DNA of 64,000 nucleotides from Candidatus Omnitrophota bacterium (GCA_030632085.1 DAOVJY010000003.1:23809-87808), one strand, 5' to 3'; counted from the first letter of the stretch, positions 7,030-27,545 are shown. Numbers and translations: made by a program. Notes: generated by a model not told the origin, from the letters alone.

Positions 7030-7066
7030 CCTTCATAGCTTTTTGCTATGAGGGTTTTTTGTTTTT
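7030..7066 (+). terminator. intrinsic terminator in the leader, 48 nt upstream of the RadC-N/MTase/OLD operon
   Basis: A 10-bp stem CCTTCATAGC/GCTATGAGGG with loop TTTTT is followed by TTTTTTGTTTTT. Confidence 0.6.
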
Positions 7067-7114
7067 ACAGAACAATATTTTCTGTTGAGATTTTAAAGGA
7101 AAGGTGGTAAAATT

Positions 7115-9874: not shown

Positions 9875-9878
9875 ATTT

Positions 9879-10721
9879 ATGTTAAAAAAGAATCCTCAAA
9901 AAAAAGCAAAATACGACAAACGTAACATCCTCAACGATTTAACTGGTAGGGATTGGTTGTTATTAACCAAAAGCGTTTGGATAAGCGAAAAGTGTGCTGA
10001 TGATAAGTTCGCGTTTCAACATCCAGCTCCTTTTTTAATCAATGATATTAAAAAACTGATTAGATTTTTTACTAAAAAAAATATGACAGTGCTTGATCCG
10101 TTTTGCGGTTCAGGGACAACCTTAGTCGCAAGCGCGCAAGAGAATAGAAAAGGAATCGGAATAGATTTAAGTAAAAAATATTGCCAAATGAGCCGAAAAC
10201 GCTTGCAAGATTTAAAGTTGAAAAAAAATCAACAAGTAGTTTGCGGGGATTCTCTCAAAAAAATATCTCAAATTAAAGGGAAGATTGATTATTGCGTAAC
10301 TTCGCCACCGTACCACAATATTTTAAGACATAATGGCGGTGGGTTGAGGGAGGCCAAAGCAAAAAATATTAGAAATGGTGCAAGAATTGGTGTTGAATAT
10401 TATTCCGATGACAAACGGGATTTAGGTAATCAGGCGCAATATAAAGATTTTCTCGCGCTATTAAAAAAAGTAATGATAGAGATTTATAAAAAATTGAGGG
10501 ACAAAAAATACTCCTCAATAATTATTAGTGATTTTACTGTAAATAAAAAAGAAACAAATGCAAGCGGTGATGTAATTCGGTTCATGCAAAACATAGGTTT
10601 TAGTTTTGAAGGTATGGTTGTGCTTGTTCAAGACAATAAGCCCCTTTATCCTTTTGGTTATCCTTATGCCTACAAAATGAATCACCATCATCAATATATT
10701 TTGAATTTTAGAAAACTATGA
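9879..10721 (+). CDS. small DNA methyltransferase (SPPY motif; N4-cytosine/N6-adenine amino-MTase), paralogous to the N-terminal module of the upstream MTase
   Basis: HPAPFLINDIKKLIRFFTKKNMTVLDPFCGSGTTLVASAQENRKGIGIDLS (motifs X-I), then CVTSPPYHN (motif IV). Overlaps or abuts the neighbouring genes. Confidence 0.75.
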   Translation: MLKKNPQKKAKYDKRNILNDLTGRDWLLLTKSVWISEKCADDKFAFQHPAPFLINDIKKLIRFFTKKNMTVLDPFCGSGTTLVASAQENRKGIGIDLSKKYCQMSRKRLQDLKLKKNQQVVCGDSLKKISQIKGKIDYCVTSPPYHNILRHNGGGLREAKAKNIRNGARIGVEYYSDDKRDLGNQAQYKDFLALLKKVMIEIYKKLRDKKYSSIIISDFTVNKKETNASGDVIRFMQNIGFSFEGMVVLVQDNKPLYPFGYPYAYKMNHHHQYILNFRKL

Positions 10722-12382
10722 ACAGAGTTTTACTAACAAAATTAAAAATAAAAAATTTAGGACCCATTAAAGAAGATGAAATTTCTTTTAATAATTTTAC
10801 ATTCTTTGTTGGAAGAAATAATGCTGGGAAGTCACATTATCTGAAAGCAATTGAATTATTACTTTCTACAGGAATAAAAAAAGAACAAATTTCTAAATTG
10901 CAACACGACAAGAATCAGCCGATTGTTATTGAAGGGGATTTTAAAGGTGTTAGTGATTTTACCGATTTGGTAACAGTAAGTAATCACAGACAAGCAATTG
11001 AGAGCGCAATAAAAGATGGGATGTTCAAAATTGTTTCTGTGTTAGATTCTGAATCAGGCGCACAGCTGGGTATTTATAAAGAGGATGGTTCTTTGCATAA
11101 TCCGGGTGGGTTCTCTGGTAATCTATTGAAAGTTTTACCGGATATCATATCAATCCCCGCGACAGCAGATACTGTACAAGAGCTAGCTGATAAATCAACT
11201 ACCGCTTTAGGAAAACTAAAAAAAGAAGTAATGAGTTCCTTTTTTCAAGAGCTAGCAAGCAAAACAAAAACTGCTTTATCAGACTTAGATGATTTTTTGC
11301 ACAGTCAAGATGAGGGGGTTCGTTCTAAAGCGATAGCTAAATTTGAAATAGGATTAAAAGAAGAATTCACGGGAGAATTTAGTGATATTGTACCTTCAGT
11401 TGAGTTTGGTTTGCCAGATGAGGCTGTAATTGCAAAGGGAATGAAAATTTTACTTGATGATGGATATAAAACAGAGGTCGAGCAAAAAGGACATGGTTTA
11501 CAAAGAGCAACATTATTAGCTCTTTTGAAATTATTAGCAAAAAGTGGGAAAAAATACCAAGACCGCCCTGCCCCCATATTTTTAATTGGAGAGTTAGAAT
11601 CTTTTCTTCACCCCTATGCTCAGCGCGAGATGGCAAATGCTTTAATTAAGATGATGGAACGGTATCAGATAGTAACAACTACACATTCACCATTTATCGT
11701 TACTCCAGCAACTATTGAAGGTTACCGCAGAGTTAGAAAAACCAAGGAGAATGGCGCCAAAAATATCGCCCTAGATCCTTCAAATGTTGATGTGAGTTTA
11801 ATCAAACGACATCTTGAGCGCCGTGGAAATCTTGAGGGGTTGTTTGCCGATAGGGTTATTTTGATCGAGGGCAGCCACGATGAAAATTTCTACGAGCGTC
11901 TAAAAACAATTTTTAATATTTCTTCTCCACAGGGAAAATTTACACTTTTCATCAAGGCCGACGGCAAGAAACAATTAAGACTTGCTAGAAAGTTTTATCA
12001 ACAGATGAGTTTTGATGATATTGCTGTAATATGCGATTTAGATTATCTCTTTAGTCGCGATGTAGAGTATCTACTCGAGAAGTTGGGATTAGAAAAAGAG
12101 TTGCCTAATAAATTTCGTGAACATATTGACTGGCAAAACGATAGAGAGTCAAAGTTAGAGTATATTGTGGAAAAATTAAGTGAGAAAGGAGAGCCTAATG
12201 GATTTGGTGACCTAATCCAAGGTTTACAGGACAAAAGAATTTTTGTCTTACGTCACGGTGCACCAGAAATGTATTACAAAAATAACAAAGGAGAGAAGAA
12301 TGGCTGGGTTCATCTCAATTCACAAAATGATTTGTTAGAGGTGGAGTATTTAAAGAAATTGATAAAATTAGTTTTAATGTAA
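10718..12382 (+). CDS. OLD-family ATP-dependent nuclease (ABC-type ATPase + C-terminal Toprim)
   Basis: Walker A GRNNAGKSH. ABC signature/Walker B region IFLIGELESFLHP. Toprim glutamate ILIEGSHDE and DxD (VICDLDY). Overlaps the upstream MTase by 4 nt. Confidence 0.75.
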   Translation: MNRVLLTKLKIKNLGPIKEDEISFNNFTFFVGRNNAGKSHYLKAIELLLSTGIKKEQISKLQHDKNQPIVIEGDFKGVSDFTDLVTVSNHRQAIESAIKDGMFKIVSVLDSESGAQLGIYKEDGSLHNPGGFSGNLLKVLPDIISIPATADTVQELADKSTTALGKLKKEVMSSFFQELASKTKTALSDLDDFLHSQDEGVRSKAIAKFEIGLKEEFTGEFSDIVPSVEFGLPDEAVIAKGMKILLDDGYKTEVEQKGHGLQRATLLALLKLLAKSGKKYQDRPAPIFLIGELESFLHPYAQREMANALIKMMERYQIVTTTHSPFIVTPATIEGYRRVRKTKENGAKNIALDPSNVDVSLIKRHLERRGNLEGLFADRVILIEGSHDENFYERLKTIFNISSPQGKFTLFIKADGKKQLRLARKFYQQMSFDDIAVICDLDYLFSRDVEYLLEKLGLEKELPNKFREHIDWQNDRESKLEYIVEKLSEKGEPNGFGDLIQGLQDKRIFVLRHGAPEMYYKNNKGEKNGWVHLNSQNDLLEVEYLKKLIKLVLM

Positions 12383-12550
12383 CCATCCTCACACACCCAC
12401 TATTTTGTATACCGTCGCCTTCTGAAAAAATTTTGGCAAAGCCAAAAGGCAGGCAGGCAAAAAGAAAAGGAGATCCGATGGCGGATGAATTTTTGCCCAT
12501 TTTCCAGTTCTACGAAGTAAAAAGCCGAAAAAATAATAAAAAAACTACTT

Positions 12551-12890
12551 GACAAATAGGTTAAGTAATGATATAGTTAAATTAACAAGGTAAAAGAGTT
12601 CTTTCAAATGACTATTGATATTGGAAGTAAATTAAAGGCGAAAAGAGTGCAGATGAATTTCACTCAGTTGGAACTTGCAACAAAGGTTGGAGTTAGCGAG
12701 AGTTACATCTGCCAGATTGAGAATGGGAAGATGGTATCGATCAAAAAGCTTGAGCAAATAGCAAACGCGGTAGGGTGCAAAGCAAAAGATCTTCTCTAGG
12801 ATATTTTTTTAATTTGAAACTTGACAAATAAGTTAACTAACATATATTTTTTGCCCTATAACTTTACAAATAGGTTAAGTAAGGAGGTGA
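12551..12890. promoter_or_regulatory. three copies of an operator-like motif, TTGACAAATAGGTTAAGTAA, around the XRE regulator gene
   Basis: Copies at about 12551-12570, 12821-12841 (variant ...AAGTTAACTAA) and 12866-12886. Each includes a -35-like TTGACA or TTTACA. Confidence 0.5.
12608..12799 (+). CDS. XRE-family HTH transcriptional regulator (cI/Cro-like) of the island
   Basis: QLELATKVGVSESYICQIENGK is a typical XRE helix-turn-helix. The gene is flanked by iterated operator-like repeats. Confidence 0.7.
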   Translation: MTIDIGSKLKAKRVQMNFTQLELATKVGVSESYICQIENGKMVSIKKLEQIANAVGCKAKDLL

Positions 12891-12895
12891 GAAAA

Positions 12896-13056
12896 TGATA
12901 GAGATCAAATTTAGTAGGCAGCAATTGACAGAATTGGATAAAGAAAGATACGCGCGAATTCTTAAGAAAGTTATTACTCAAATGTCGAACCTGAATAAAA
13001 GTGCTAGCTTACCAAAGAAAATTATATTCACGGAACTAAAAATTATTTTTATGTAA
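12896..13056 (+). CDS. small hypothetical protein (53 aa)
   Basis: ATG follows an AAGGAGGTG RBS. It is below the ORF-track size cutoff and was read manually. Confidence 0.35.
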
Positions 13057-13073
13057 GAAAAGAGAGAAATAAA

Positions 13074-13247
13074 GTGCTAGAAAGCGAAATTTTATTTGTA
13101 GAAGATATTTCTAGATTGTTTAGCATTTCACAGAATACCATTCAAAGGAAAAAATGGAGAAAACAAACAGGAATGCCTTTACATAAAATAGGCAAGAAAT
13201 TGTGTGGGTTTAAGCGCGAAATTGAGGAGTGGGCTAAGTCTAAATGA
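13074..13247 (+). CDS. xis: excisionase / AlpA-like HTH DNA-binding protein (Xis)
   Basis: GTG start, 58 codons. ISRLFSISQNTIQRKKWRK...GFKREIEEW is Xis/HTH_17-like. Its stop overlaps the integrase start (ATGA). Confidence 0.55.
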   Translation: MLESEILFVEDISRLFSISQNTIQRKKWRKQTGMPLHKIGKKLCGFKREIEEWAKSK

Positions 13248-14344
13248 GAAGAAAACTCCCAGGTGTCAGAGAAATAATTAAGGGGGATAAATACGAAGTC
13301 AACTATGTAGTTGCTGGCAGGAGATATCAGTATCGCATTAATGCCGCATCTCTTACTGAAGCACACAACAAGAAATTAGAAGATATGGCAGATAAGCGTA
13401 AAAATATATCTACGCTATTAGATAATGGAGAACGTCTTAATACCGGATTTTCTGACGCCTGGGAGAGATTATACGCTGATTTAATTGCGGATAACCTACC
13501 CAGAAAGACAATACAGCATTACGCCAAGACTTATAGTAGGATGTTTAATGAGTTTATAAATTTAAGATTTCCGGATTTGATGAATTTCGGTCAGCTGAGC
13601 TTACCGTTCTTCCGGGAATATAAAAATTACTATGTTAATAATCTCAATAGACCTAGGGGCTGGAGAGCAGAGTTGATATTTGTCAAAGCGATAATAAAGC
13701 GCCTCTACGCCTTGGGTTATTGCAGCAAAGAGCTCATAGACAGCTTAAAGGAGATAAAGAAACCCCGGGCTGTCAAAAAGGAACACCCCCATATACCTAA
13801 TAGCAAAATAAAGGAATTGTTTCAATATATAAAAAATAGCAGGCCAGATTATTACTATCCTTTGTATTTTATTAGTAGGACAGGCAGAAGAATTAATGAG
13901 ACAACGCTTATAGAGCGGAGAGATGTAGAATGGAAAGGGTTTAGCCCTGCAAGGCTTAATATAAGAGCCGAGACTACAAAAACGAAACAAAATGCTCCTC
14001 TTGCAAATCTTGACCAAGAATTAAAGCAGGTTATAAGCGAAGCATATAAGGCAGGTTTAAAATGCAAGGAGCCTTATTTATTTCTTAATATGTTTAACAG
14101 AAGATGCACGCCCAGCAAGGTAAGGGAATGTCTTAAAGGAGCAAGTAAGCAGATTTTGGGAGTGGAAATTACTCCTCACTATTTCAGGCATAGGTTTTTA
14201 ACAGAATGCGGCAAAGCCAATGTACCTATCGTGGATGTTATGGCTATTTCTGGCATTAAGGATATAAATGTTATAGTTAATTATTATAGTCACAGTACAG
14301 TAGAAGGACAGACAAAAGTGCTTGAAGTTAGCAGGGTTTGGTGA
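13244..14344 (+). CDS. int: tyrosine recombinase / phage-type integrase
   Basis: The C-terminal catalytic region reads HYFRHRFLTE...VNYYSH (R, H-x-x-R and Y). It sits next to the attR repeat. Confidence 0.8.
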   Translation: MRRKLPGVREIIKGDKYEVNYVVAGRRYQYRINAASLTEAHNKKLEDMADKRKNISTLLDNGERLNTGFSDAWERLYADLIADNLPRKTIQHYAKTYSRMFNEFINLRFPDLMNFGQLSLPFFREYKNYYVNNLNRPRGWRAELIFVKAIIKRLYALGYCSKELIDSLKEIKKPRAVKKEHPHIPNSKIKELFQYIKNSRPDYYYPLYFISRTGRRINETTLIERRDVEWKGFSPARLNIRAETTKTKQNAPLANLDQELKQVISEAYKAGLKCKEPYLFLNMFNRRCTPSKVRECLKGASKQILGVEITPHYFRHRFLTECGKANVPIVDVMAISGIKDINVIVNYYSHSTVEGQTKVLEVSRVW

Positions 14345-14407
14345 TACAATTATGACGAATTTATGTGGTGGAGGATGTGGTGAAAGGAACATTTTGAATA
14401 TAAAAGT

Positions 14408-14431
14408 GTTCGAATCCCAGCCTCTCCGCCA
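14408..14431. repeat. attR: 24-bp direct repeat of the tRNA-Ser 3' end
   Basis: Identical to 2542-2565. Confidence 0.8.
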
Positions 14432-14480
14432 ATATAGCAAAGAGCCTATAGCATAGAGCGTAGGACAAAGATAGATTGCG

Positions 14481-14495
14481 CAGCCTCTCCGCCAG
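14481..14495. repeat. second partial repeat of the tRNA-Ser 3' end (15 bp, CAGCCTCTCCGCCAG), possibly the remnant of an earlier integration
   Basis: Matches 2552-2566, including the first base after the tRNA. Confidence 0.5.
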
Positions 14496-14680: not shown

Positions 14681-17600
14681 GTGGACCAGATTCGAATGTT
14701 CTGCAGCAAAACCGAGCTTTCTAAACGCCCTAATATTAAATACGCTAAAACGCGACATAGTAGAAGTCCCCGCCTTAGCTATCTTGTGACATCAATCCTG
14801 ACGATTTTAGTTGCAATTTTTGTTTTAACTAAGGTAGTTGCTGCAGCACCTTCCTTTTTGAATTCGGAACAAAACGATATAAATTACTCCTTTAATCTTC
14901 TGGATGCCGGCATGAAAGGGGTGTTCAATATTGGCCCCGGACAAGGCACTGAAAAACGTTCATTCGATGAAACCATTGAGAAAAACGTTTTGAAATTCGG
15001 CTACTCGATACCCAAAGGGTCAGTTATGGGCGTTTGGTCACAGAGGTTTCCATCTGAGTTAGGAGCGGACGCAGTGGATGCGGTTAGGATTGGCGTCAAG
15101 GTGCCGAATCCTGAGCAGTTGCAGCAAGTGTTCGTAAAGGTAGAGATCAAAGGGGAAAAGGCCGTGCAGACTATCCCGCTTCATCTTGAACTTGGCTGGA
15201 ACTCTATTCGAGAATCTATCAACTGGAACACGATAGGTAATCTGAAGGAAGCTGTTTTTGTAGTCAGTCCAATCGGCGGTGGTGAGTCGGTGGAGGGGAC
15301 ATTGTATTTTGATATTGATTTCTACAAGCTGACGTCCTTGCAGAAAAATTTCATCTTCGTAAAAATTAGCTTGGTCTTTGTAATCAGCTTATGTCTTGCC
15401 TTAGTGAGCGCCTTTCTTGGTGGGCTGTTTGGCCGAAGTAAAAGCGGCGATTCTTCCTCCTTCGCTTTTCGAGCTTCGCAGGACAAGCCGGAGGTACCGA
15501 CTCTATCAAGGCTTAAGCGAGATTTCTTCTATGGCATAGTGGCTGTATTGATTGCAGGAGTTGCGTTTTGGATCTACTCCAGAGGCTCAATAAGTCCCTT
15601 GGAAGCAGGTTTTAGTCTTACTTTTCTGGTTATAGGGTTAATGGGCGCGGTAATTGCTGAAGTTTTGAAATTCGGCCTCACCGGCAAACATCTTACACCT
15701 CGTGAAGTTTTTCAAAATATTCTCGTAACAGGTTTCATTGCGGCCGGGTCAAGTAGGTTAGGAGTTTTACATGCTCCTTCTACTTGGACTGAATTATTTA
15801 TGTTAAACAAAGTTATCGCAACGCTTGCCTTCTTGGTGTATCACATTTCCAACGCCTTCTCGCTGGCATCTAGCGGCAAGCATACGAAAGCTTTTACAGG
15901 AGCATTGATTATTGGGACACCCTGCCTTTTAAATTGGTTGATGTTGTTACAAAATGTAATCCTTCTACAAACACTGGCAAGCAGTATGACTTTGGGGCTG
16001 CTTTCCGCCTGGCCGAAAATTCTTGAGATTATAGGTCGAGTTTTTGTCGTGTTTGTTTTCAATGAAGCTTTTATAAATGGAATGAGTTTTGCCACTAAGG
16101 GCAAGATGCTTAAGGCGTCCAAGGCTCACCTGTTTATTTTATTGGTTTCTTTAGGTGTTATCATAGCTCCAATGATTGCGGATCTGGGATCAACTACAGC
16201 TGTCGCCGGACTACCGGTAATGCTTAGAGCCATCATTGCTATTTTAACAACCATGCTATCCTTTGCGGGGCTCTGGGGAGAAGTGTATCTTATCACAGGA
16301 GTAGCCCTGGATGGCGGTTATCACAGGGCGCCTTCATGGAGGAGTGTCTTTAGTCATGTTACCACAGGCATGAGAAAAGGTATGGTATACAGCGGCATTT
16401 TGATAGCGCTTCTGTATGCGTTAAGTATGGTCTTGGGCGCACGCTTCACGCAGACAATAATAAGCTCTTTACCGATAATGATTGGAATTCTTGCCGGTGC
16501 ATTGATTTTTCCATTAATTAAGACTATTATTGAGACGTTTGATGGCAGCCAACCGTTTTCCGAACGTATGCGGCATAACTACCGTGATAAGACCTTATAT
16601 GCCAGAGGCGCAGTTGCCGGATGCGGATTTGCTTATGCGCTTACTCACGATTTTTTTCAACTAAACATGTCTGATAGGATCATATTTGGTCTCATCGTTG
16701 GCCTTATCGCATCCGCGGGCGTGAGTATCTTAAGGGATTTCACGTATGCTCGCAGAGGCCAGGGGCGAATCCAGACATGGAAACTTTATTTTACTGACGC
16801 GCTCTTAGGTGCTTTTATTGGAAGCGCCTCAGCATTCTATTTGGACTCTTTTCAGGTGCCGGTGGTCGTTGAGAAATTCAAACTCTATACGAATGCCGGT
16901 TTTTCTGCGAGGGAGTACATTACCTATCCGCTGGTTTGCAAGTGGGGCCGCATTGATTTGGGGACGTATACCGGCGGGACAAAACTTCTTTTTACCGAAT
17001 CTTTAGCCGGTGTCATCAACTGGACTATTGCTGCAGGGCTGTTCGCCATAAACAAGGTATTTTTACAGGCGTTTTTTGAGAAACACACAGCCCCGATTAA
17101 GTTCTTCTTCTCAAAGGCGGGTTTTGCTCAGTTAATCGAGCATATAATCTATGTCTTGCGGTGGGGGTTGTGGATGTCGCCTATTATATGGACCTTCTTG
17201 CGCATGATGCCGGATCCAACCTGGTACAACCAGGACGGGGGGATTCGCACCCTGTTTGCCATTTACCATGACGCGACGATGTCTCCCGGGGCATTTAGAG
17301 CCTGGAGTCTGCAGATTTTTATTTATATTCTGGCGTTTGACTTCTTCCGGGTTCTTATTTGGATGGATCACATGGGTTTGCGCGTTGCCACATTAGTTAA
17401 CTTGAGCTTCATTGGCCTGGACAGGCTTGATGAACGAATTGCGCGTTTCATCGGCCCGGCGGCAGCACAACGCTACATCCCGGAGGCCGTTAAACGTTTT
17501 TGTACATGGGGACCGTTACTTATTCCTTTCTATCTTCCGCGCGGGAAGGCGTGGGATTATGCGTGGAGCACGTCAGAAACTATGCAAAACGCTATGATAG

Positions 17601-20600
17601 CCAAAGGCGGGGGAATGTTTGCTAGTATACAAGCTCTTACTCTACCCCGGACACTGCTTCTTACCGGTTGCGCCGTCTCGGTTTGTACGGGAATTTCTTT
17701 TGTCCTGCGGTTATTGCAGTGTCGATCTCGCAAGCGGCACGTTAAAACCTACGAGTTACATAACAGAGAATACAGAGTTATCCTTAAGGAAAACGGTGAA
17801 GTATACAGTGAGGTTGAACACAAAAAAGTCGGGGTTTTCCCCATGACATACGATATCAGCCGGCGTTCATACGATACCATAGATCCTTGCGGCAGAATAC
17901 TCTATCTCGTAGATACATTAGAGTGGCGCAAGAGCGCAAAACGCTGCTGGCCAATCATAGGGAATTTCCCAAAAGAGAGATTTGAAGCGTCTCGCATTGA
18001 AAGCGGTGATAATTCTCTTAGGGTGGTTAACACCACTAATGGTATTAGAACGACAATTAATATTAGTTTGCCGGAAGGGGAGACGACGGCGGAACTGTGG
18101 ACGATTACAGTTGAGAATCTGACGAATACGTCGCGCAAACTAAAGATTGTTCCCTATCTGGAGTGGGTGCTCAACGGAGGCCTTCATGATAGATTTCATA
18201 CACAATACGTTCGATTGTTTCCTGAAATGGAATATGTAAGTGGAGTTAACGCTATCCTATCCTGGCAGAAAGGTACGAAATCTATGGGGATTTTGGCAGT
18301 GGATGCTTCTCCGGAAGGATATCTCACTTCGCGTATGGATTTCATTGGCCGCGCCCGTAGCATTTGGAGGCCGCGGGTATTGGAAACACTAGACTTCCTG
18401 GATGCCCAAGATGCGTCCGCCTATCCAACATTTGATCCCATTGGGAGCTTAATAATAAATGCTACGGTTAATCCAAATGCTTCTAAGACGGTTCGTCTAG
18501 TGATTGGCTATGCTAAAAACAGAAAAACTGCTCTTGATTTGATTGATAAACACCTGAAGCCGCAGGCAATTGAAGCAACGACCTTAAAAAAAGTGAAAAA
18601 GAAGTCAATGTTGATTGGCCATGGTGAAATCCTTCCAGGAACACCTCAGCCGTATTTTGAATTTATTGATAATGGCAATAAGCTTTTGGTTCATACGCCC
18701 TATACGCCGCGGCCTTATGATCACGCGATGTCGAATGCCCTCGAGCATTCTGTTATGGTAACCAATCGCGGACTCCATACATCCTGTAATGGTAATTCAC
18801 AACAGAACCGCCTGACGCCGGATTGGCCTGATACGGTTACAAAAGAAGTACCCACGGAAGCGATTTATCTATATGACACGGATAGCGATGAATGGTATTC
18901 TCCAACGCATCACCCGCTCAACGATCACAATGCTAAGAATAAATCAGAATTCGGCGTTGATGGAACGGCGGTATTTCGTATGACGGCAGGAAGCCTTTCA
19001 ACGGAGCTTACGGTATTTGTGCCGCCGGATGATCCAATGGGCGTCTATCTCTTAACCGTAAGAAATAATGCGGATCATTCTCGAAGAATACGGATTGCGT
19101 CATACTTTCAGATGGTGCTGGAATTTCAACCCGAAAAGACAGGATCATTACAGGTGCGCCATGACAAGGCATTGAGCGCTTTGTTTTATTATAATCCGCG
19201 TAATATGTTCCGTAAAGGCTGGGCTTTTGCCTCGATGTCGATACCGGCTGAGTGCATAGAAACAATGCGTGGCAGATTTTTTGGAAGGCAGTGCGGCGTT
19301 CGTCATCCATTTATGGTAGAACATGGTAAGCCGGATGTAGCACAGTTAACTGACAGGAGGCCAATTGCGGCTTTTCTGGGAACCTTGGATATTCCTGCCA
19401 ATGGCGAGAGTACGGTTGCTATCATCCTGGGGCAGACTGATAAACGCAAAGATGCTGCCCGCTTGGTTAAAAAATATAAAAGAGTTGAAACAGTTCGAGA
19501 AAGTCTTAAGTATACCCGGAATTGGTGGCTTAGCCTGATGCAGACGGTAGAGGTTAAAACTAATCATCCGGAATTTGACCAGCTTCACAACTGGCTTAAA
19601 TACCAGACTCTTGCGGAGCGCATTTGGGCCAGACGGGGATTCTATCAAACCAGCGGGGCCTTCGGTTTTCGGGATCAACTCCAGGATACTGTGAACCTGA
19701 TCTGGGTTGACCCGGCCTTGGCGCGCAAGCAGATCCTTTTGCATGCGTCTCACCAGTTTCTCGAGGGCGATGTATACCATTGGTTCTTTACGTTAACTGA
19801 TGGGCGAACAGCATTTTCCTGCCGGTCGCACGCTTCTGATAATCCGCTGTGGCTGGTCTGGGGCGTAGTTGAGTATGTCAGAACTACAGGTGATTATTCA
19901 ATCCTCAATGAGATGACGTCGTATGTATGGAGTGAGTTTCCTTTTGCGGATCTTCCTAAAAATAAGACAGGGCTGGGGCACCTTTTTCACCGCTCAACCC
20001 GGCAAGATTCTGTTTACAAACACTGTTTGAAGTCGATTGACCTTGTGCTGGAAAAACGCATGGGAGCACATGGGTTGCCGCTTATAAGAACGGGAGATTG
20101 GAACGACGGATTGGATGAGATTGGAAGCGAAGGCAAGGGCGAGAGTGTATGGCTTGGATTCTTCCTTTATTATATTTTGAAGCACATGGTTAGTATTATT
20201 GAAAGAAAAGAAGGCGCAAGCCGCAGGAAACATTACGTCAAGAAGATGGAGGAGCTCAAAAATGCCATAGAGTTGACCTGGCGGAGCGACCGGTATCTGC
20301 GGGCCATTCATGACGACGGCACGGAGATTGGCGTCAAAGACAGCGGTATATGGGAAACCGATGCCTTAACAGCGGCGTGGGCAGTTATAGCCGGCATTAA
20401 TCATGAGAGAGAAGTTATAGCATTTCACACTGCCTTAGGTGTTCTTGAGAAAGAAAATCTCGTATTACTCGGTTGGCCGGCACTTCATGAAGACAGTAAA
20501 CCATATCTTGGCAGAAGTAGTAAGTATCCTGAGGGTGTGCGCGAGAACGGCATGTATTGCCATGGTGCTCAATGGCTTATCAGGGCGTCACGAATCCTGA

Positions 20601-20974
20601 CAGAACGATATGAAGAGCAAGGAGATTATGCTAAAGCGAATGAATATCGGGAAATTGCCTATCGGCTGTGGCTTAAGATTACGCCGATTTCTCATACAAC
20701 ACCACAGGAAATTGAAATCTTTGGTGGAATGCCAAACAAACAACCTGCTGATATTTTAACCAACTTCGACCGGGGACGAATGATCTGGCATGGCTACACA
20801 GGTGCTGCCGGCTGGCTGTTGCGTCAAGCTTACGAAGGTGTAGTAGGAGCGTCTTTGATCGATAACGAGCTTATTCTGCCGGCTGATCTTGATAAGCCAA
20901 GAGGCAAATTGAAGGTAAGCAGCATGCACAGAGATGTGGGAAAAAGCCCCTTGAAGCTCAGGCGGCCGCGTTAA
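14681..20974 (+). CDS. giant membrane protein (2097 aa): signal anchor, extracytoplasmic CBM-like domain, roughly 780-aa polytopic membrane domain, then C-terminal GH94 glycoside phosphorylase (cellobiose-phosphorylase-like)
   Basis: GTG at 14681, alternative ATG at 14696. The GH94 N-domain begins at YELHNREYRV and includes ITVENLTNTSRKLKIVPYLEWVL. Catalytic-region hallmarks are FGFRDQLQD and IRTGDWNDGLDE. There are more than 15 predicted TM helices between aa 220 and 1000 and no GT-A domain. The N-terminal domain ends in GTLYFDIDF. Confidence 0.8.
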   Translation: MDQIRMFCSKTELSKRPNIKYAKTRHSRSPRLSYLVTSILTILVAIFVLTKVVAAAPSFLNSEQNDINYSFNLLDAGMKGVFNIGPGQGTEKRSFDETIEKNVLKFGYSIPKGSVMGVWSQRFPSELGADAVDAVRIGVKVPNPEQLQQVFVKVEIKGEKAVQTIPLHLELGWNSIRESINWNTIGNLKEAVFVVSPIGGGESVEGTLYFDIDFYKLTSLQKNFIFVKISLVFVISLCLALVSAFLGGLFGRSKSGDSSSFAFRASQDKPEVPTLSRLKRDFFYGIVAVLIAGVAFWIYSRGSISPLEAGFSLTFLVIGLMGAVIAEVLKFGLTGKHLTPREVFQNILVTGFIAAGSSRLGVLHAPSTWTELFMLNKVIATLAFLVYHISNAFSLASSGKHTKAFTGALIIGTPCLLNWLMLLQNVILLQTLASSMTLGLLSAWPKILEIIGRVFVVFVFNEAFINGMSFATKGKMLKASKAHLFILLVSLGVIIAPMIADLGSTTAVAGLPVMLRAIIAILTTMLSFAGLWGEVYLITGVALDGGYHRAPSWRSVFSHVTTGMRKGMVYSGILIALLYALSMVLGARFTQTIISSLPIMIGILAGALIFPLIKTIIETFDGSQPFSERMRHNYRDKTLYARGAVAGCGFAYALTHDFFQLNMSDRIIFGLIVGLIASAGVSILRDFTYARRGQGRIQTWKLYFTDALLGAFIGSASAFYLDSFQVPVVVEKFKLYTNAGFSAREYITYPLVCKWGRIDLGTYTGGTKLLFTESLAGVINWTIAAGLFAINKVFLQAFFEKHTAPIKFFFSKAGFAQLIEHIIYVLRWGLWMSPIIWTFLRMMPDPTWYNQDGGIRTLFAIYHDATMSPGAFRAWSLQIFIYILAFDFFRVLIWMDHMGLRVATLVNLSFIGLDRLDERIARFIGPAAAQRYIPEAVKRFCTWGPLLIPFYLPRGKAWDYAWSTSETMQNAMIAKGGGMFASIQALTLPRTLLLTGCAVSVCTGISFVLRLLQCRSRKRHVKTYELHNREYRVILKENGEVYSEVEHKKVGVFPMTYDISRRSYDTIDPCGRILYLVDTLEWRKSAKRCWPIIGNFPKERFEASRIESGDNSLRVVNTTNGIRTTINISLPEGETTAELWTITVENLTNTSRKLKIVPYLEWVLNGGLHDRFHTQYVRLFPEMEYVSGVNAILSWQKGTKSMGILAVDASPEGYLTSRMDFIGRARSIWRPRVLETLDFLDAQDASAYPTFDPIGSLIINATVNPNASKTVRLVIGYAKNRKTALDLIDKHLKPQAIEATTLKKVKKKSMLIGHGEILPGTPQPYFEFIDNGNKLLVHTPYTPRPYDHAMSNALEHSVMVTNRGLHTSCNGNSQQNRLTPDWPDTVTKEVPTEAIYLYDTDSDEWYSPTHHPLNDHNAKNKSEFGVDGTAVFRMTAGSLSTELTVFVPPDDPMGVYLLTVRNNADHSRRIRIASYFQMVLEFQPEKTGSLQVRHDKALSALFYYNPRNMFRKGWAFASMSIPAECIETMRGRFFGRQCGVRHPFMVEHGKPDVAQLTDRRPIAAFLGTLDIPANGESTVAIILGQTDKRKDAARLVKKYKRVETVRESLKYTRNWWLSLMQTVEVKTNHPEFDQLHNWLKYQTLAERIWARRGFYQTSGAFGFRDQLQDTVNLIWVDPALARKQILLHASHQFLEGDVYHWFFTLTDGRTAFSCRSHASDNPLWLVWGVVEYVRTTGDYSILNEMTSYVWSEFPFADLPKNKTGLGHLFHRSTRQDSVYKHCLKSIDLVLEKRMGAHGLPLIRTGDWNDGLDEIGSEGKGESVWLGFFLYYILKHMVSIIERKEGASRRKHYVKKMEELKNAIELTWRSDRYLRAIHDDGTEIGVKDSGIWETDALTAAWAVIAGINHEREVIAFHTALGVLEKENLVLLGWPALHEDSKPYLGRSSKYPEGVRENGMYCHGAQWLIRASRILTERYEEQGDYAKANEYREIAYRLWLKITPISHTTPQEIEIFGGMPNKQPADILTNFDRGRMIWHGYTGAAGWLLRQAYEGVVGASLIDNELILPADLDKPRGKLKVSSMHRDVGKSPLKLRRPR

Positions 20975-21514: not shown

Positions 21515-22288
21515 ATGCCAGATACTTTTTTATTAACTATTATCTTTATAGCTTTAACTACTATGATTACGGCCTTTGTCAAGGGAAAGAGCCGAGATAG
21601 ATGCTTGATAGACTTATCAGGTGATGAGATTGACATGGAAATGATTAGCGGCAAGACTGTGTGGGGGCGCCTAACTGTAGAAAGCACCGGCTTGGAGTTT
21701 AGCTATGGCGAGCCTAATAAAGATAACGATGGCCACAAGGAGTATAGCTTTTTGCTTTATAAAAACGAATATTCCCAGATACAGAATTTGATTCTTTATC
21801 ATGATAAATTGGATGAAAAAAGAAGAGAAATACGTCAAAAAGAAATACAAAAAACGCACAATCCTAATTTTTTAAGGCGCAACAAGAGAAGAGTGAGGAA
21901 TTTCTTTGCTACTGTAAGAGATGCCATCATGGAGGTAATTAATCTTTTTATTGGCCAGGCAAAAAAACTTTCTCCGGCGCAAGCAATCTCTGGCGGCCAG
22001 GATAAATATGTTAATGAGATGAAAAAGGATCTTTTTGGTTTATCAGCCACAGCCTTCGAACCTCTCTTAGAGAAACACATAGGTAAAAAAGTGGTTTTGG
22101 AGTTTTTAAGAAATGATAAGGTTGAAGAGTATGTTGGGGTCTTGAAGGACTATACTGCCGAGTTTATTGAAATATTGGACGTTAATTATAAAAAAGAAGG
22201 CCAGGAGGCCAGAAAAGCTGACTTCGTGGTTCCTCGGTCGTTGGGTTTAGTAAAGCACCTGGCGGAAGATAAGACAATGCGCCCATAG
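21515..22288 (+). CDS. membrane-anchored hypothetical protein
   Basis: An N-terminal TM segment FLLTIIFIALTTMITAF is followed by a charged soluble domain. The 3' end overlaps the first tRNA-Arg 5' fragment copy. Confidence 0.45.
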   Translation: MPDTFLLTIIFIALTTMITAFVKGKSRDRCLIDLSGDEIDMEMISGKTVWGRLTVESTGLEFSYGEPNKDNDGHKEYSFLLYKNEYSQIQNLILYHDKLDEKRREIRQKEIQKTHNPNFLRRNKRRVRNFFATVRDAIMEVINLFIGQAKKLSPAQAISGGQDKYVNEMKKDLFGLSATAFEPLLEKHIGKKVVLEFLRNDKVEEYVGVLKDYTAEFIEILDVNYKKEGQEARKADFVVPRSLGLVKHLAEDKTMRP

Positions 22289-22492
22289 CTTGCATGAATA
22301 CGCAACTTACAGAATGTAATGAAGGTAAGTTGCTGTGTGAATGCATCCCGCACCAGACGAAGTCTTGGTGGCGGGATTGTTTTGGCTGGAGTAGAAAATT
22401 CACAGATGCGCCCATAGCTTCCCCCTTAGCTAAAGCTTCGGAGGACAAGACGCTATGGCTGGAGTAGAAAATTCATAGATGCGCCCATAGCT
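22277..22492. repeat. three copies of the tRNA-Arg 5' end (ATGCGCCCATAGCT), including a 36-bp tandem duplication, upstream of tRNA-Arg
   Basis: ATGCGCCCATAGCT occurs at 22277-22290, 22406-22419 and 22479-22492. The last copy is the real tRNA 5' end. GGCTGGAGTAGAAAATTCA(C/T)AGATGCGCCCATAGCT occurs at 22384-22419 and 22457-22492. Confidence 0.7.
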
Positions 22493-22557
22493 CAATTGGA
22501 CAGAGTAGCGGTCTACGAAACCGTTGGTTCCCCGTTCGAATCGGGGTGGGCGCGCCA
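22481..22557 (+). tRNA. tRNA-Arg (anticodon ACG)
   Basis: Acceptor GCGCCCA/TGGGCGC, D-arm GCTCAATTGGACAGAGT, anticodon loop CTACGAA, T-arm CCCCGTTCGAATCGGGG, then CCA. Confidence 0.8.
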
Positions 22558-22653: not shown

Positions 22654-23157
22654 TTGAAATTACTAAATGGTACGGTGGTCCCGTACCCGAAAGCATTTGA
22701 GATGGATGATAAATTTTATATACAGGAGGCCATCAAAGAAGCCATAAAGGCTTTTGAAGCTGATGAGGTGCCGGTGGGGGCGGTTATCGTTTATAAGAAT
22801 AGGATAATTGCCAGGGCGCACAATCAAATAAAGACCTTAAAAGATCCCACTGCTCACGCCGAAATGATAGCTATCACCCAGGCGGCTAGCTATTTAAAAA
22901 ACGAGCGGCTTCTTAATACGGCTATGTATGTAACTCTTGAGCCCTGCGCCATGTGCGCGGGGGCTTTAGTTTTAGCCAGAATAAAGAAATTAGTTTTTGG
23001 TGCTAAAGATGAGAAAGCCGGTGCGTGCGGTTCGGTAATTGATTTGACTAATAACAAAAAGCTCAATCATAACTTAATTGTAAAAAGCGGTGTCTATGAA
23101 GATGGGTGCCGCAAAATCTTACAGGAATTCTTTAAAAAGAAGAGAAAGCAGAATTAG
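22654..23157 (+). CDS. tadA: tRNA-specific adenosine deaminase TadA (start may be Met at 22702)
   Basis: Carries the CDA zinc motifs HAEMIAI and PCAMCAGAL. It lies directly downstream of its substrate tRNA-Arg(ACG). Confidence 0.8.
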   Translation: MKLLNGTVVPYPKAFEMDDKFYIQEAIKEAIKAFEADEVPVGAVIVYKNRIIARAHNQIKTLKDPTAHAEMIAITQAASYLKNERLLNTAMYVTLEPCAMCAGALVLARIKKLVFGAKDEKAGACGSVIDLTNNKKLNHNLIVKSGVYEDGCRKILQEFFKKKRKQN

Positions 23158-23487: not shown

Positions 23488-26052
23488 TTACCTCTCGTTA
23501 TCTAAAGTAATATCGTCAAAATAGATTTCCCCTGAACTTCTCCGTCCGGGCGCAATAAAAAACATAATTTTATTGATATGCTCCTTATCAACAGCATTCT
23601 CAGATAATTTAGACAAATCATACACTAACCGGTTCCATTGATCCTTATTAACGGCGCTTGCAACGCTAATATCTTCCTGATTATTTTCATTGTTATAAAG
23701 CTTCGCAAGAACGGATTCACACCCAAAAAGATTTATTTTCAGGTAACGATATTGCTTTATATTCAAAGGTTTTTTAAATCTCAATTCAACGCAATCCCAA
23801 TCGCCTTTATCTTGATATTTTATCTTTAAAGAGCTGCTTCCTTTAAGTGCTTTTTCTTTTGTGATCTCTAATATAATAGTTTCTGAAGAAGCTTCCCATG
23901 AAAGGGGATACAACAAAGGTGTTTCATCTTCAAAACTATCGAGAGATAAGCTTTTTTGAACACTCTTTACAATTACGGGGCCAAACGAAACGGGTTTTGA
24001 ACGATTTCCCGCTTTATCAATAACCTGTACGGCAAAATAATATTTACCTTTATCCGGCACTGAGAGGAAAATATTTTCATTTTCTTTTGCAAATGAAGCA
24101 TAATATACATCCTGCAATTTTTTTAACTTTTCAAAAGTTGACTGGGCGCTTACAGGAACCGCAGAGTATCTTATATCATACTGCAACGCTTCTTCGGGCT
24201 TCTTAAAGGTAACCTTGCACACAGCGCTGTCTTTAATATTTGATACACTAAGACATGTAACTTCACGTGGATTTTTACAGGCTTGAGAATAAGTCAAAAA
24301 TATTCCGTCTAAATAAATTTTCTGTCCCGTTTCTCCTTTTTCAGGGCTGATAAGCAAAGTAATACTGTCTATCACTTCCATATCTATATCTTTTATTGCC
24401 TCTATCGAATAAACATATCTTTTCCAGCTGGCAGAATTATTGAAACCGGTGGATTTAATCTCCATTATTCCGCCTTTCGTATCGGCTAATGTAATAACAA
24501 TCTCTTCAGCATTTCTCGCCCATAAAGAAATATATTTGAAATTCGAAAAGTCTTTAAGCTCAGGGCTTACGGACAAAATAACATCTTCGCCTTCTGCTGG
24601 TGTTATTTCCAAAGACCTGTTGCCTTCCATAGATATAGCATCATTAAAACCTGCTGTTGCCCTTTTATTCAAAATTTTATATGTTGAATAAGAGTTTTCT
24701 GAATCATCAAATTCGAAATCTTCAATAATTCCCACAAACCCTATTTTTTCCATTGCTTCTTGAATATACTTATTTCTCATAAAATACTTCCATATCAACC
24801 CCGACCTGAAATTTTCAATCATCACTACTATAGGGCCGTTATCAATACCAAGGTAGGAGCCTTCGTACCAGTCCGTTTTCAGGTTGAAGGCATCAATAAA
24901 TCCATACCGCCCCCAAACATCATCTTTATAATTGGCATAAAGATATTTCAGGGTGTTTACACACTTCTCGGGGGTAAACACAATTCCTCCGGCAATGGCA
25001 TGCGGTGTAATTGTGCCATCCTCAAAAAGCTCTCCAATGGGGCCGCCGTACCCGTCATAACCAGACATTGAAATGCAGGATGAAATTCCCCAGAGCGGGT
25101 TTTGATAATTATCAGAACGCAGGCAATAATCCTGCTGGGCCGAAACGGCATACCTTGAGTTCCTGAAATAGTCAGCTGCCTGATCTTTTCTATTCCTCAA
25201 GTCAAACCAGCAATGCATATAGTAATGAAAAACTATTCCCGGAGGAGTTGTCGCGATAATCCTCCGGCCATTATAGTCTTGCCAGTTATAGGTTGATTGA
25301 CACGCGTACCATGAAGAAACAGGAATCGGATGCGAGGGTGACGCAATAGCAATCAAATGAATTAAGAACGAATTATCTCTATATCCCTTATATCGCGGAA
25401 CAAATCCGCCTTCCATTCCCCATGAACTTCCTTCTCCAAAAGGAACATATCCCATCGATATAAAATCGTGCCTGTTCCCATCGTTATCAAACATAAATTT
25501 ATCCCACTCGCACGCCCGGACAATTTCATCACCTATTCTTTCAATTTCCGTACCCTTAAAATATTCCATGACGGTAATAACACCCGCGATAAATTCGGCG
25601 GTATCGGCAGTTGAAACACAGTCCATCTTATTAAACCATTTCCCCGTTCTCATATCAACAAAATGGAAAAATAACCCAAATCTCCCCTCAACAATAAAAT
25701 CATCAGGATCTGAAGGATTTTTATGAAAACTTTTTAATGTTCTCAGCACACGTTCATAAGCATCTTCATATGAAATCCATCCCCTGTATTCCGCCACACA
25801 TATTGCGGAAAGCCCCCAGCCCACTGAAGCGACACTGCACATGTTTGACTTTGTACCATCCTTTATTAAACCATTCTCGGGATTTACTTCTTCCCAAAAA
25901 TATGCGAAAGCCTTCTTTTCAACCATTTCTAAGAAACCAATGTCTTCTTTAGGCAGAATCATTTTGGAAGTTTCCTGAGCGCTGGAAATTCCCAAAACCG
26001 CAATAACAATACTAATAAGCGATATAACAATAATAGTTATTTTCCTTAACAT
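23488..26052 (-). CDS. secreted multidomain glycoside hydrolase-like protein (glucoamylase-like/beta-glucanase-like alpha-alpha barrel N-domain, FN3-like module, C-terminal CBM-like domain)
   Basis: Signal peptide MLRKITIIVISLISIVIAVLGISSA. The large N-terminal domain is rich in W and aromatic residues. An FN3-like segment reads IRYSAVP...YYFAVQVIDKAGNRS. The C-terminal CBM-like segment ending GEIYFDDITL is homologous to the N-terminal domain of the 2097-aa protein. Confidence 0.55.
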   Translation of the reverse strand: MLRKITIIVISLISIVIAVLGISSAQETSKMILPKEDIGFLEMVEKKAFAYFWEEVNPENGLIKDGTKSNMCSVASVGWGLSAICVAEYRGWISYEDAYERVLRTLKSFHKNPSDPDDFIVEGRFGLFFHFVDMRTGKWFNKMDCVSTADTAEFIAGVITVMEYFKGTEIERIGDEIVRACEWDKFMFDNDGNRHDFISMGYVPFGEGSSWGMEGGFVPRYKGYRDNSFLIHLIAIASPSHPIPVSSWYACQSTYNWQDYNGRRIIATTPPGIVFHYYMHCWFDLRNRKDQAADYFRNSRYAVSAQQDYCLRSDNYQNPLWGISSCISMSGYDGYGGPIGELFEDGTITPHAIAGGIVFTPEKCVNTLKYLYANYKDDVWGRYGFIDAFNLKTDWYEGSYLGIDNGPIVVMIENFRSGLIWKYFMRNKYIQEAMEKIGFVGIIEDFEFDDSENSYSTYKILNKRATAGFNDAISMEGNRSLEITPAEGEDVILSVSPELKDFSNFKYISLWARNAEEIVITLADTKGGIMEIKSTGFNNSASWKRYVYSIEAIKDIDMEVIDSITLLISPEKGETGQKIYLDGIFLTYSQACKNPREVTCLSVSNIKDSAVCKVTFKKPEEALQYDIRYSAVPVSAQSTFEKLKKLQDVYYASFAKENENIFLSVPDKGKYYFAVQVIDKAGNRSKPVSFGPVIVKSVQKSLSLDSFEDETPLLYPLSWEASSETIILEITKEKALKGSSSLKIKYQDKGDWDCVELRFKKPLNIKQYRYLKINLFGCESVLAKLYNNENNQEDISVASAVNKDQWNRLVYDLSKLSENAVDKEHINKIMFFIAPGRRSSGEIYFDDITLDNER

Positions 26053-26400: not shown

Positions 26401-27018
26401 ATGAAAAATATTTCACGTAAGACAGTTGATAGAGCGCTTATTTATATAAGAACTCTTGATCACTTAATAAAAGAAAAACGTTATCTGGTTTCGTCAAAGG
26501 ATTTGGCCTTGATTACCGGCATTAGTGACGTGCAGATACGCAAGGATATATCCAACTTCGGCAAGGTCGGAAGGCCGAGAATAGGATATAAGACGGCTGA
26601 GCTGAATAAAACCTTAAAAGGTTTTGTTCTGCAGGAGAATGTTGTTCATGTGGCGCTCTTTGGCGTGGGGCATCTGGGTACGGCTATGTTGAGTTATCCG
26701 GCCTTTAATGAAGACAACATCAAATTAGTTGCCGCCTTTGAAAAGGATAAGAGCAAGATAGGCAAAAAGATAAACGGCGTCAAGGTTTATTCTGTAGAGA
26801 CGGCTCCAAAGATTATCAAAAGAACGCACGCCGATTTAGGGATAATTGCCGTTCCCGCCTCTCATAGCCAGGAGGTAGCGGACATTATGGTTTTATCCGG
26901 CCTGAAGGGTATAGTGAACTTCGCGCCAGCATCAATCAGCGTTCCTAAAAGTGTGAGTGTTAAAGATATTGATTTTACAATAGAACTTCTCTCACTCTTT
27001 TGCAATAATTTGCAATAA
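26401..27018 (+). CDS. rex: redox-sensing transcriptional repressor Rex
   Basis: A winged-helix N-terminus is followed by a Rossmann fold with FGVGHLG. It sits immediately upstream of the hydrogenase operon. Confidence 0.8.
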   Translation: MKNISRKTVDRALIYIRTLDHLIKEKRYLVSSKDLALITGISDVQIRKDISNFGKVGRPRIGYKTAELNKTLKGFVLQENVVHVALFGVGHLGTAMLSYPAFNEDNIKLVAAFEKDKSKIGKKINGVKVYSVETAPKIIKRTHADLGIIAVPASHSQEVADIMVLSGLKGIVNFAPASISVPKSVSVKDIDFTIELLSLFCNNLQ

Positions 27019-27059
27019 TTAAATATAGTATAATGATATATAAAAACAATTAATAGGAG

Positions 27060-27545
27060 ATGGTTATGGTAAATGAGTGCGCGGTTCCAAAAAAAATTAT
27101 TAAGGGCGGTAAAGAAGTGATGGTTTGTGATGAAACCCGCTCAAGGCTTCTTCCTGTGCTGCAGGACATTCAGGATAAAAAGGGGTACATATCGGATAAG
27201 AATATGCAGGAAGTAGCAGATATGTTTGGCATTCATCCGGTTGAAGTCTTTTCTGTAATTACCTTTTATTCCTTTTTATCAGAGAAGAAAAAAGGTAAGC
27301 ATATCATTAGGGTGAGTAATTGCGTTTCAAACGTGATGGCAGGCAGTGAGAAGATTGTCAAGGAGTTTGAAAAGGTACTTATGATCGAAATCGGCCAGAC
27401 AACCAAAGACGGCGAGTTTACTCTTGAGAGAACCAGTTGTATTGGTATGTGTAATGAGGCGCCGGCTATTATGGTTGATGATAAATTGATAGGGAAAGTA
27501 ACCCCTCAAAGGGTAAAAAAAATAATCCAGGAGCAGAAGCAATGA
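27060..27545 (+). CDS. NuoE/HndA-like thioredoxin-fold hydrogenase subunit (HydC-like), apparently lacking the full Cys4 set
   Basis: TTKDGEFTLERTSCIGMCNEAP matches the C-terminal CxxxC half of NuoE. The N-terminal CxxxxC pair is degenerate (NCVSNVMAG). Confidence 0.65.
   Translation: MVMVNECAVPKKIIKGGKEVMVCDETRSRLLPVLQDIQDKKGYISDKNMQEVADMFGIHPVEVFSVITFYSFLSEKKKGKHIIRVSNCVSNVMAGSEKIVKEFEKVLMIEIGQTTKDGEFTLERTSCIGMCNEAPAIMVDDKLIGKVTPQRVKKIIQEQKQ

Follow-up and report, generated by a model that had tools for sequence, protein, structure and literature searches.

What does a glycoside phosphorylase do behind a large membrane domain in one and the same polypeptide? The question is raised by a single uninterrupted open reading frame (ORF) of 2097 codons with a GTG start, found by translation at positions 14681-20974 (+) of a 64,000-nucleotide stretch from Candidatus Omnitrophota bacterium (GCA_030632085.1, DAOVJY010000003.1:23809-87808), which is the window analysed in this study. 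The original prediction, made from the sequence alone, described its product as a fusion of a periplasmic domain resembling a carbohydrate-binding module (CBM), a polytopic membrane domain and a cytoplasmic phosphorylase of family GH94, with an architecture distinct from that of the cyclic beta-1,2-glucan synthases (Cgs, NdvB), which combine GT84 and GH94. It is firmly established that the protein carries a Cgs-type GH94 with intact catalytic residues, obligatorily fused after a novel domain of 19 transmembrane (TM) helices, that it has no glycosyltransferase domain, and that genes for secreted beta-1,2-glucanases recur in its vicinity. Judged from its sequence, it is a Cgs-type GH94 phosphorylase integrated in the membrane and one member of a large uncharacterised family. 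A familiar enzyme is thus placed in a membrane architecture that is new and conserved and carries an undescribed domain. In the literature searched, no description of GH94 fused to a polytopic membrane domain was found.

Architecture of the protein

The GH94 assignment was upheld by a Pfam search with the full protein, in which both GH94 domains scored far above their curated cut-offs. The supersandwich domain PF06165 matches in two stretches (223 bits, cut-off 23, best E-value 5.3e-66), and the catalytic domain PF17167 reaches 217 bits (cut-off 27, 4.3e-64). No other Pfam domain was detected in the protein, and NCBIfam revealed nothing meaningful. The first supersandwich (approximately residues 1030-1300, positions 17768-18580), delimited by the second PF06165 stretch and a weak phmmer match, corresponds to the Cgs subdomain GP1 and bears ITVENLTNTS (residues 1142-1151) and YLEWVL (residues 1159-1164). 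The second supersandwich (residues 1347-1584, 18719-19432) is the best PF06165 stretch. It is followed by the catalytic (alpha/alpha)6 domain (residues 1615-2056, 19523-20848) with FGFRDQLQD (residues 1661-1669, including D1665) and GDWNDGLD (residues 1805-1812, including D1809). All motifs named in the original prediction were recovered, among them GTLYFDIDF near the N-terminus (residues 206-214).

Among PDB sequences, 16 GH94 structures were matched. The best relative is the GP domain of the A. tumefaciens Cgs with 350 bits, while cellobiose phosphorylases reach about 130 bits. Residues 1330-2070 align to residues 2036-2762 of the Cgs chain (E 1.5e-103 to 4e-102), and residues 1136-1297 align weakly to GP1 (Cgs residues 1640-1808, phmmer). 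GP2-3 is thus matched strongly and GP1 weakly, with approximately 45 residues between the two supersandwich regions. In the alignment to 8rf9, D1665 and D1809 pair with D2393 and D2528 of Cgs, where the Cgs numbering was corrected for an offset of 19 residues between chains 8rf9 and 8rf0. Both aspartates are at least 90% conserved among 25 full-length members of the family. D2393 and D2528 were mutated by Sedzicki et al., who also defined subdomain GP1 (PMC10901819). Since the GH94 half is specifically Cgs-like, it points to beta-1,2-glucan; together with the GH144 neighbours described below, this affinity suggests beta-1,2-glucan as the substrate. The chemistry is probably a phosphorolysis from the non-reducing end which yields alpha-glucose-1-phosphate (Glc-1-P).

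The likeness to Cgs extends to the supersandwich and catalytic subdomains (strong for GP2-3, weak for GP1), the two catalytic aspartates, the nature of an inner-membrane protein with GH94 in the cytoplasm (as predicted here), and the tie to an enzyme of the GH144 fold. Beyond this, the two proteins differ. The N-terminal domain (NTD) of Cgs is missing, and so is GT84 with its D, DxD and RW motifs and its GT-A fold beneath the TM helices. The in-chain GH144/GH189 cyclase of Cgs (PF10091) is absent here and in 25 out of 25 full-length homologues; the protein with the GH144 fold is a separate secreted enzyme instead. The Rossmann-like RFL insert of 166 residues that separates GP1 from GP2 in Cgs cannot fit into the gap of about 45 residues, Cgs has 6 TM helices in contrast to approximately 19 of unrelated fold, and of the two proteins only the one studied here has an extracytoplasmic N-terminal module. 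Soluble GH94 enzymes, such as Lin1839, LpSOGP and the cellobiose and chitobiose phosphorylases, share the same catalytic fold and motifs, and SOGP genes likewise cluster with GH144 glucanases and sugar importers of the ATP-binding cassette (ABC) type. These enzymes are cytosolic, however, whereas GH94 is here fused behind a membrane domain of 800 residues, and LpSOGP is not among the PDB matches of our protein at E<=0.01.

The polytopic membrane domain comprises residues 217-1019 (about 800 residues, 15329-17737). A structure prediction with subsequent fold search had been proposed for this region. For residues 215-1020, AlphaFold2 delivered a model of high confidence (predicted local distance difference test, pLDDT, 90; predicted TM-score, pTM, 0.89), based on an alignment of 50 sequences with 32-72% identity. 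It supersedes an earlier run with 11 close homologues, which was unusable with a pLDDT of 58. The model consists of approximately 19 long helices, several short helices and a single, periplasmic beta-hairpin at residues 739-765. The original prediction had spoken of almost nothing but transmembrane helices. This is broadly correct: hydropathy reveals approximately 14 strongly hydrophobic segments across residues 224-1012, but residues 685-990 are only moderately hydrophobic and include three long, highly conserved loops.

A Rossmann-type alpha/beta or GT-A domain does not occur in this model, which excludes a GT-A, GT84 or GT2 domain. The claim that no soluble GT-A insert precedes GH94 therefore stands, and so does the distinction from the GT84-GH94 architecture: a cryptic GT84 or GT2 domain, named beforehand as the finding that would speak against that distinction, was not found in the membrane region. 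Foldseek against 350,542 PDB chains returned no match at E<=1e-3; the best E-value was 0.24, with TM-scores of at most 0.13. The top 50 matches contained no protein of the GT-C, BcsA, Fks1, SEDS or Wzy type, and the search revealed no fold likeness to the membrane glycosyltransferases and translocases PglB, ArnT, PMT, Emb, BcsA, Fks1, SEDS and Wzy. A profile of the membrane domain (11 homologues) searched against 177,635 PDB sequences, including Cgs 8rf9/8rf0, came back empty even at E = 10. Pfam and NCBIfam gave no match in residues 1-1020, seven diverse family members yielded only scattered noise against Pfam at E <= 10, and hhalign, run between the N-terminal and C-terminal halves of the domain, detected no internal repeat. 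The membrane domain constitutes an undescribed family without fold match in PDB.

Topology was derived from the AlphaFold helix boundaries together with counts of residues in the 50-sequence alignment. Of the short loops, those assigned to the cytoplasm show an excess of K+R (K+R/D+E, e.g., 1.3/0.0, 1.8/0.4, 2.6/0.3, and 2.4/0.6), while those assigned to the periplasm do not (e.g., 0.4/0.7, 0.6/1.3, 0.1/0.3, and 0.3/1.1). Because RSRKRHVK follows directly after the last helix, GH94 is placed in the cytoplasm, the compartment in which phosphate and Glc-1-P are relevant. At the N-terminus (residues 1-53, 14681-14839), translation and hydropathy reveal a K/R-rich tail, predicted to be cytoplasmic, with 9 K/R within residues 1-34, followed by a signal anchor or signal peptide whose hydrophobic core, or TM segment, spans residues 35-53. 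The predicted order is the tail, this anchor, an outside module of 160 residues and a return helix at residues 224-249. The proposed placement of the module outside and of GH94 inside agrees with the positive-inside rule over the 50 homologues.

Across the same 50 homologues, 104 of the 806 membrane-domain positions are at least 90% conserved, and these concentrate in residues 720-960 (16838-17560). The three long predicted periplasmic loops p7-p9 hold 27 of the 34 conserved loop residues. These loops bear the KWGxIDLG hairpin (here KWGRIDLG), TWYNQDG and RYIPE...PRG..WD (here RYIPEAVKRF...PRG..WD), and the adjoining helices bear ESLxGVINW (here ESLAGVINW), RWGLWMxP (here RWGLWMSP) and DHMGLRVATLVNLSF. 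The conserved residues of the periplasmic loops are rich in W, Y, N, Q, and D. On the cytoplasmic side ETFDGS (residues 618-623, 16532-16549), at the predicted cytoplasmic end of a TM helix, is the sole conserved motif and accounts for four of the six conserved cytoplasmic-loop residues. The dense set of invariant Trp, Tyr, Asn, Gln, Asp, His, and Arg would be consistent with a surface that binds or conducts carbohydrates.

The extracytoplasmic beta-rich module ahead of the membrane domain (about 160 residues, 54-216; 14840-15328), delimited by tblastn and alignment, ends in GTLYFDIDF. Among 87 loci compared by tblastn, 79 contain it in one to five tandem copies directly upstream of the membrane domain, an arrangement seen in the branch of Omnitrophota, Elusimicrobiota and Planctomycetota. 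Most members of a more distant branch have just 7-38 residues at this place, and the module appears to be absent there. In the complete Omnitrophota genome CP070780.1, the module and the return TM helix form a separate ORF of 246 residues (locus L002, 9246-10001) with a lipoprotein-like signal (…NISGCS…) and its own stop, and the core gene lies in a different frame. Either the gene is truly split here, or a frameshift separates the two parts. Both the distant branch and this separate ORF identify the module as an accessory part.

The label CBM-like is unproven. Neither a consistent Pfam match among 40 copies of the module nor a PDB sequence match was found, and the only hint of a CBM-type beta-sandwich comes from hhalign, which aligned the module weakly but colinearly to a CBM_11-like protein of the CP070780.1 operon (E 0.04, probability 1.3%). 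The module may have a role in carbohydrate binding. Its proposed homology to the C-terminal part of the glycosidase encoded at 23488-26052 is not supported: BLASTP gave E = 2.5, and hhalign with a 147-sequence profile of the module gave a probability below 2%. Only the short final-strand motif G-x-[IL]-Y-F-D is common to both.

Distribution and gene neighbourhood of the family

With the membrane-domain profile, an exhaustive HMMER search over 1.84 billion representatives found 534 clusters at E <= 1e-3, 232 of them at E <= 1e-30, and many of the cluster representatives are 1700-2250 residues long. The 25 full-length members align end to end, down to 31% identity. All 25 have the supersandwich and 24 the GH94 catalytic domain, and other Pfam domains occur in none. 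A scan of the GTDB species genomes revealed at least 573 encoding loci. The best 80 of these belong mostly to Omnitrophota, but also to Elusimicrobiota, Planctomycetota, Chlamydiota, Sumerlaeota and Auribacterota, while the distant branch, of high GC content, consists of metagenome-assembled genomes labelled Deltaproteobacteria, Beijerinckiaceae, Roseiarcus, and Porticoccaceae. The family is thus conserved, uncharacterised and present in at least 573 mostly uncultured bacterial species.

In 82 of the 87 loci, a GH94 coding sequence lies directly after the membrane domain on the same strand, and the other five stop at a contig end. The fusion is obligatory and no artefact: with the same architecture in more than 80 independent loci and in 25 full-length members, an assembly error is excluded as its source. 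Homologues that seemed to be split over adjacent ORFs (P0165, P0003, P0006, and P0018) were considered as separable proteins and rejected. Their break points differ, and on the contig of P0165 the neighbouring genes are fragmented too, so that frameshift errors or pseudogenes are the likelier cause.

These data also dispose of the two simplest accounts of the locus, namely an ordinary Cgs/NdvB synthase with a cryptic or divergent GT84 or GT2 domain, and an ORF that errors of assembly or frameshifts had turned into a chimera. The Cgs-like GH94 half speaks for the former. Yet the strong Cgs match is confined to residues 1330-2070, supplemented by the weak GP1 match; residues 1-1020 have no Cgs match by sequence profile or fold; the model contains no alpha/beta domain, and the polypeptide no PF10091 cyclase domain. 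A chimera is contradicted by the recurrence of the architecture in the loci and divergent members just cited. We regard either account as extremely improbable and both as effectively excluded, as far as the sequence and fold searches reach.

Downstream of the large gene, on the opposite strand, lies a gene for a secreted homologue of GH144 endo-beta-1,2-glucanases (23488-26052 (-), 854 residues, PF10091 2.7e-57). Its product starts with MLRKITIIVISLISIVIAVLGISSAQE (translation) and consists of a signal peptide, a catalytic domain at residues 30-445 and about 400 residues of C-terminal beta-rich domains. Against PDB it matches XcSGL (8xul, 2.3e-53) and CpSGL (5gzh, 1.5e-37), which are characterised beta-1,2-glucanases (PMC12102758). 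This protein is a probable functional partner of the membrane GH94 protein. GH144 forms the largest neighbour cluster in the 87 loci (26 proteins from 16 loci), and tblastn located GH144-like genes near family members in 17 of them. The link to glycans drawn in the original prediction is supported by the adjoining glucanase and by the recurrence of such neighbours elsewhere.

Approximately 12 loci share one gene order: a sugar-binding lipoprotein (substrate-binding protein, SBP), a soluble GH94, a CBM11/GH144 protein, a tetratricopeptide repeat (TPR) protein and the gene of this family, followed by a second GH144, two ABC permeases, an unknown protein of 240 residues and a ROK protein. The extracytoplasmic members of this operon bear signal peptides, and as a whole it resembles an operon for beta-1,2-glucan utilisation. 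Its soluble GH94 of 790 residues (locus L002, 2918-5290, with equivalents in about eight loci) scores 535 bits against the Cgs GP domain versus 490 against cellobiose phosphorylases, and may be an uncharacterised soluble phosphorylase specific for beta-1,2-glucan. The remaining loci show unrelated housekeeping neighbours. Other recurrent neighbours are a pyridine nucleotide-disulphide oxidoreductase, an RNase D-like 3'-5' exonuclease, PrmA, and a D-Ala-D-Ala carboxypeptidase, and a weakly PMT_2-like (GT-C) gene is located upstream in two loci. Neither a glycosyltransferase nor a sugar ABC transporter is encoded within the 64-kb window.

A membrane H+-pyrophosphatase is encoded near family members in three of 89 loci (L089, 8122-10251; L066, 12355-14403; L006, 1-567), in L089 directly 3' of the GH94-encoding ORF. 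This association is too rare to interpret.

Possible roles of the membrane domain

We tentatively favour a catabolic role as the most economical mechanism. The membrane domain would serve as a conduit through which beta-1,2-glucan from the periplasm reaches the phosphorylase in the cytoplasm, a reading we hold to be plausible without calling it probable. Secreted GH144 endo-glucanases would open or shorten linear or cyclic beta-1,2-glucans in the periplasm or outside the cell. The glucan chain would be bound by one or more N-terminal modules and by the periplasmic face of the 19-TM domain with its conserved aromatic and polar residues, and the membrane domain would move it across the inner membrane. 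There, the fused GH94 would take glucose units off the non-reducing end with inorganic phosphate and release Glc-1-P, such that uptake would be powered by metabolic trapping rather than by ATP. That the glycan passes through the membrane domain, and that the reaction runs in the catabolic direction, are interpretations on our part. The direction is suggested by the operon of approximately 12 loci, with its SBP, ABC permeases, soluble GH94, GH144 proteins and ROK protein, and an ATP-free phosphorolytic route would suit a hydrogenase-bearing fermentative anaerobe such as the host of this window (see below).

Several points weigh against the conduit. Neither an experiment nor a structural homologue indicates that the membrane domain conducts anything, and carbohydrate binding by the N-terminal module, for which Pfam and PDB sequences offer no match, is unproven. 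An ABC importer and a soluble GH94 are already encoded in the conserved operon, and next to them an extra import route looks redundant. In most loci, as in our window, the family gene is surrounded by unrelated housekeeping genes and has no transport or catabolic partners; this stand-alone placement resembles that of envelope-biosynthesis genes such as cgs or opgH. Finally, the substrate is deduced only from the similarity to Cgs and from GH144 neighbours, which occur in about 20% of the loci.

The stand-alone placement in most genomes, like that of cgs and opgH, would in turn be expected of a synthase-exporter, in which GH94 runs in reverse and extends beta-1,2-glucan from Glc-1-P while the membrane domain exports the growing chain. 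The N-terminal modules would then guide the chain in the periplasm and GH144 enzymes would trim or process it, in analogy to OpgH/OpgG or Cgs/Cgt but without a nucleotide sugar. The nearest relative of the GH94 half is the GP domain of a synthase, and the locus contains two of the three catalytic module types of Cgs (GH94 and GH144-like). Both observations fit such a role, and the periplasmic tandem modules are reminiscent of the carbohydrate-binding domains of BcsB. Moreover, SOGP, itself a GH94 enzyme, readily builds beta-1,2-glucan polymers in vitro when supplied with Glc-1-P (PMC3960220). However, the GH94 domain within Cgs shortens chains and does not build them (PMC10901819). The conserved operon with SBP, ABC importer permeases, soluble GH94 and ROK protein is a catabolic signature. 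In cells, inorganic phosphate far exceeds Glc-1-P, so that phosphorylases work in the catabolic direction, and we know of no phosphorylase that serves as a polysaccharide synthase-exporter in vivo. A synthase-exporter is physiologically unusual, and we consider it unlikely.

The same operon, with its own importer and ROK protein, could accommodate a membrane domain that conducts nothing and either tethers the phosphorylase, e.g., beside the ABC importer, or regulates it. Such a regulator might sense periplasmic glucan, osmolarity or the state of the membrane, or might sequester the ROK regulator in the way EIICB-Glc sequesters Mlc. The lack of a transporter or channel fold among the Foldseek matches in PDB, and of the internal repeat typical of secondary transporters in the hhalign comparison, agrees with this idea. 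On the other hand, 800 residues with 104 positions at least 90% conserved across phyla exceed the needs of any anchor; invariant W, Y, N, Q, D, H, and R motifs line the periplasmic face and charged residues lie inside helices, and Pfam and NCBIfam reveal no known signalling output domain. We doubt this explanation as much as the preceding one. In a further reading, the membrane domain would itself be an enzyme facing the periplasm, i.e., a new membrane glycosyltransferase, transglycosylase or hydrolase, which could depend on a lipid-linked sugar as GT-C enzymes do, while GH94 performs a separate cytoplasmic step. Indeed, conservation is strongest in the periplasmic loops and the adjoining helix ends, with D722, D852, D896, H897, and R901 invariant, and the PMT_2-like (GT-C) gene upstream in two loci, weak as the match is, points the same way. 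But Foldseek found no likeness to a solved protein of the GT-C, SEDS, Wzy, or WaaL type (best TM-score 0.13), and a product made in the periplasm would be beyond the reach of the cytoplasmic GH94, which leaves the invariable fusion without explanation. An enzyme of this kind is decidedly improbable.

The conduit for uptake can be generalised to a machine of unknown type, whose 19-TM domain of novel fold threads beta-1,2-glucan across the inner membrane in either direction, obligatorily coupled to the fused GH94. We regard this as a substantial possibility, though less likely than not. The membrane machine of the original prediction, in which phosphorolysis or its reverse is coupled to translocation or recognition of an extracellular glycan, would agree with these data. 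Its inward version would amount to a possible group translocation by phosphorolysis, an ATP-free uptake of polysaccharide that yields Glc-1-P directly; its outward version would be a possible Glc-1-P-dependent synthase-exporter that needs no nucleotide sugar. BcsA, OpgH, Fks1 and the EIIC proteins of the phosphotransferase system (PTS) likewise combine a cytoplasmic carbohydrate-active module with a polytopic membrane domain, an arrangement in which chemistry may be coupled to passage. They differ from our protein, which has no GT-A/GT2 or PTS domains and no sequence or fold similarity to them. To our knowledge, phosphorolysis has not been reported to be coupled to transport.

Beta-1,2-glucans have roles in symbiosis, virulence, and osmoprotection, and all routes known to us by which they are made or consumed rely on GT84/GT2 synthases, soluble phosphorylases, or ABC transporters. 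The family described here adds a conserved third architecture in at least 573 species, mostly from poorly understood phyla (Omnitrophota, Elusimicrobiota, and Planctomycetota) and to some extent from Proteobacteria. If the membrane domain conducts glycan, it would represent a new principle of transport or synthesis, a translocation coupled to phosphorolysis, and a way of sparing ATP that would matter to anaerobes short of energy. Should it not conduct glycan, a new and confidently modelled membrane protein family has been defined all the same.

Other features of the window

The region upstream of the large gene (2473-14495) has the appearance of an integrated element of 12 kb. It starts with a tRNA-Ser(GCU) gene (2473-2565), the 3' end of which is copied at 14408-14431 (24 bp) and 14481-14495 (15 bp). 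The cargo comprises a MauJ-like gene, two DNA methyltransferases (7406-9874 and 9879-10721), an OLD-family AAA/TOPRIM nuclease (10718-12382), and a tyrosine integrase (13244-14344). With its start 250 bp past the right-hand repeat, the large gene falls immediately outside this island.

Between the large gene and a tRNA-Arg(ACG) gene (22481-22557), an ORF of 257 residues (21515-22288) was considered as a further part of the system. It was rejected, as it has neither a Pfam match nor a homologue in the 87 related loci. The tRNA-Arg(ACG) gene is located immediately upstream of a TadA-like cytidine/adenosine deaminase (22654-23157), of which this tRNA is the expected substrate.

Beyond the GH144 gene, an [FeFe]-hydrogenase cluster extends from 26401 to 35268. 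It encodes a Rex-like regulator, NuoE-like and NuoF-like subunits and a HydA large subunit with a small-subunit domain. Genes for maturases come next, namely HydF and two radical-SAM proteins (HydG/HydE-like). The cluster indicates that the host is a fermentative anaerobe. Further downstream, a tRNA-Asn gene (39831-39906) is followed by a large serine recombinase (41240-42787 (-)) and AT-rich ORFs without Pfam match, e.g., one of 800 residues at 46105-48507. The region 39831-49276 may be a second mobile element.

With 0.463 and 0.469, the large gene shows the highest GC content and the highest GC content at third codon positions (GC3) in the window, while other genes range from 0.32 to 0.45 and the GH144 gene has 0.38. 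This elevated value could result from horizontal acquisition or from amino-acid composition.

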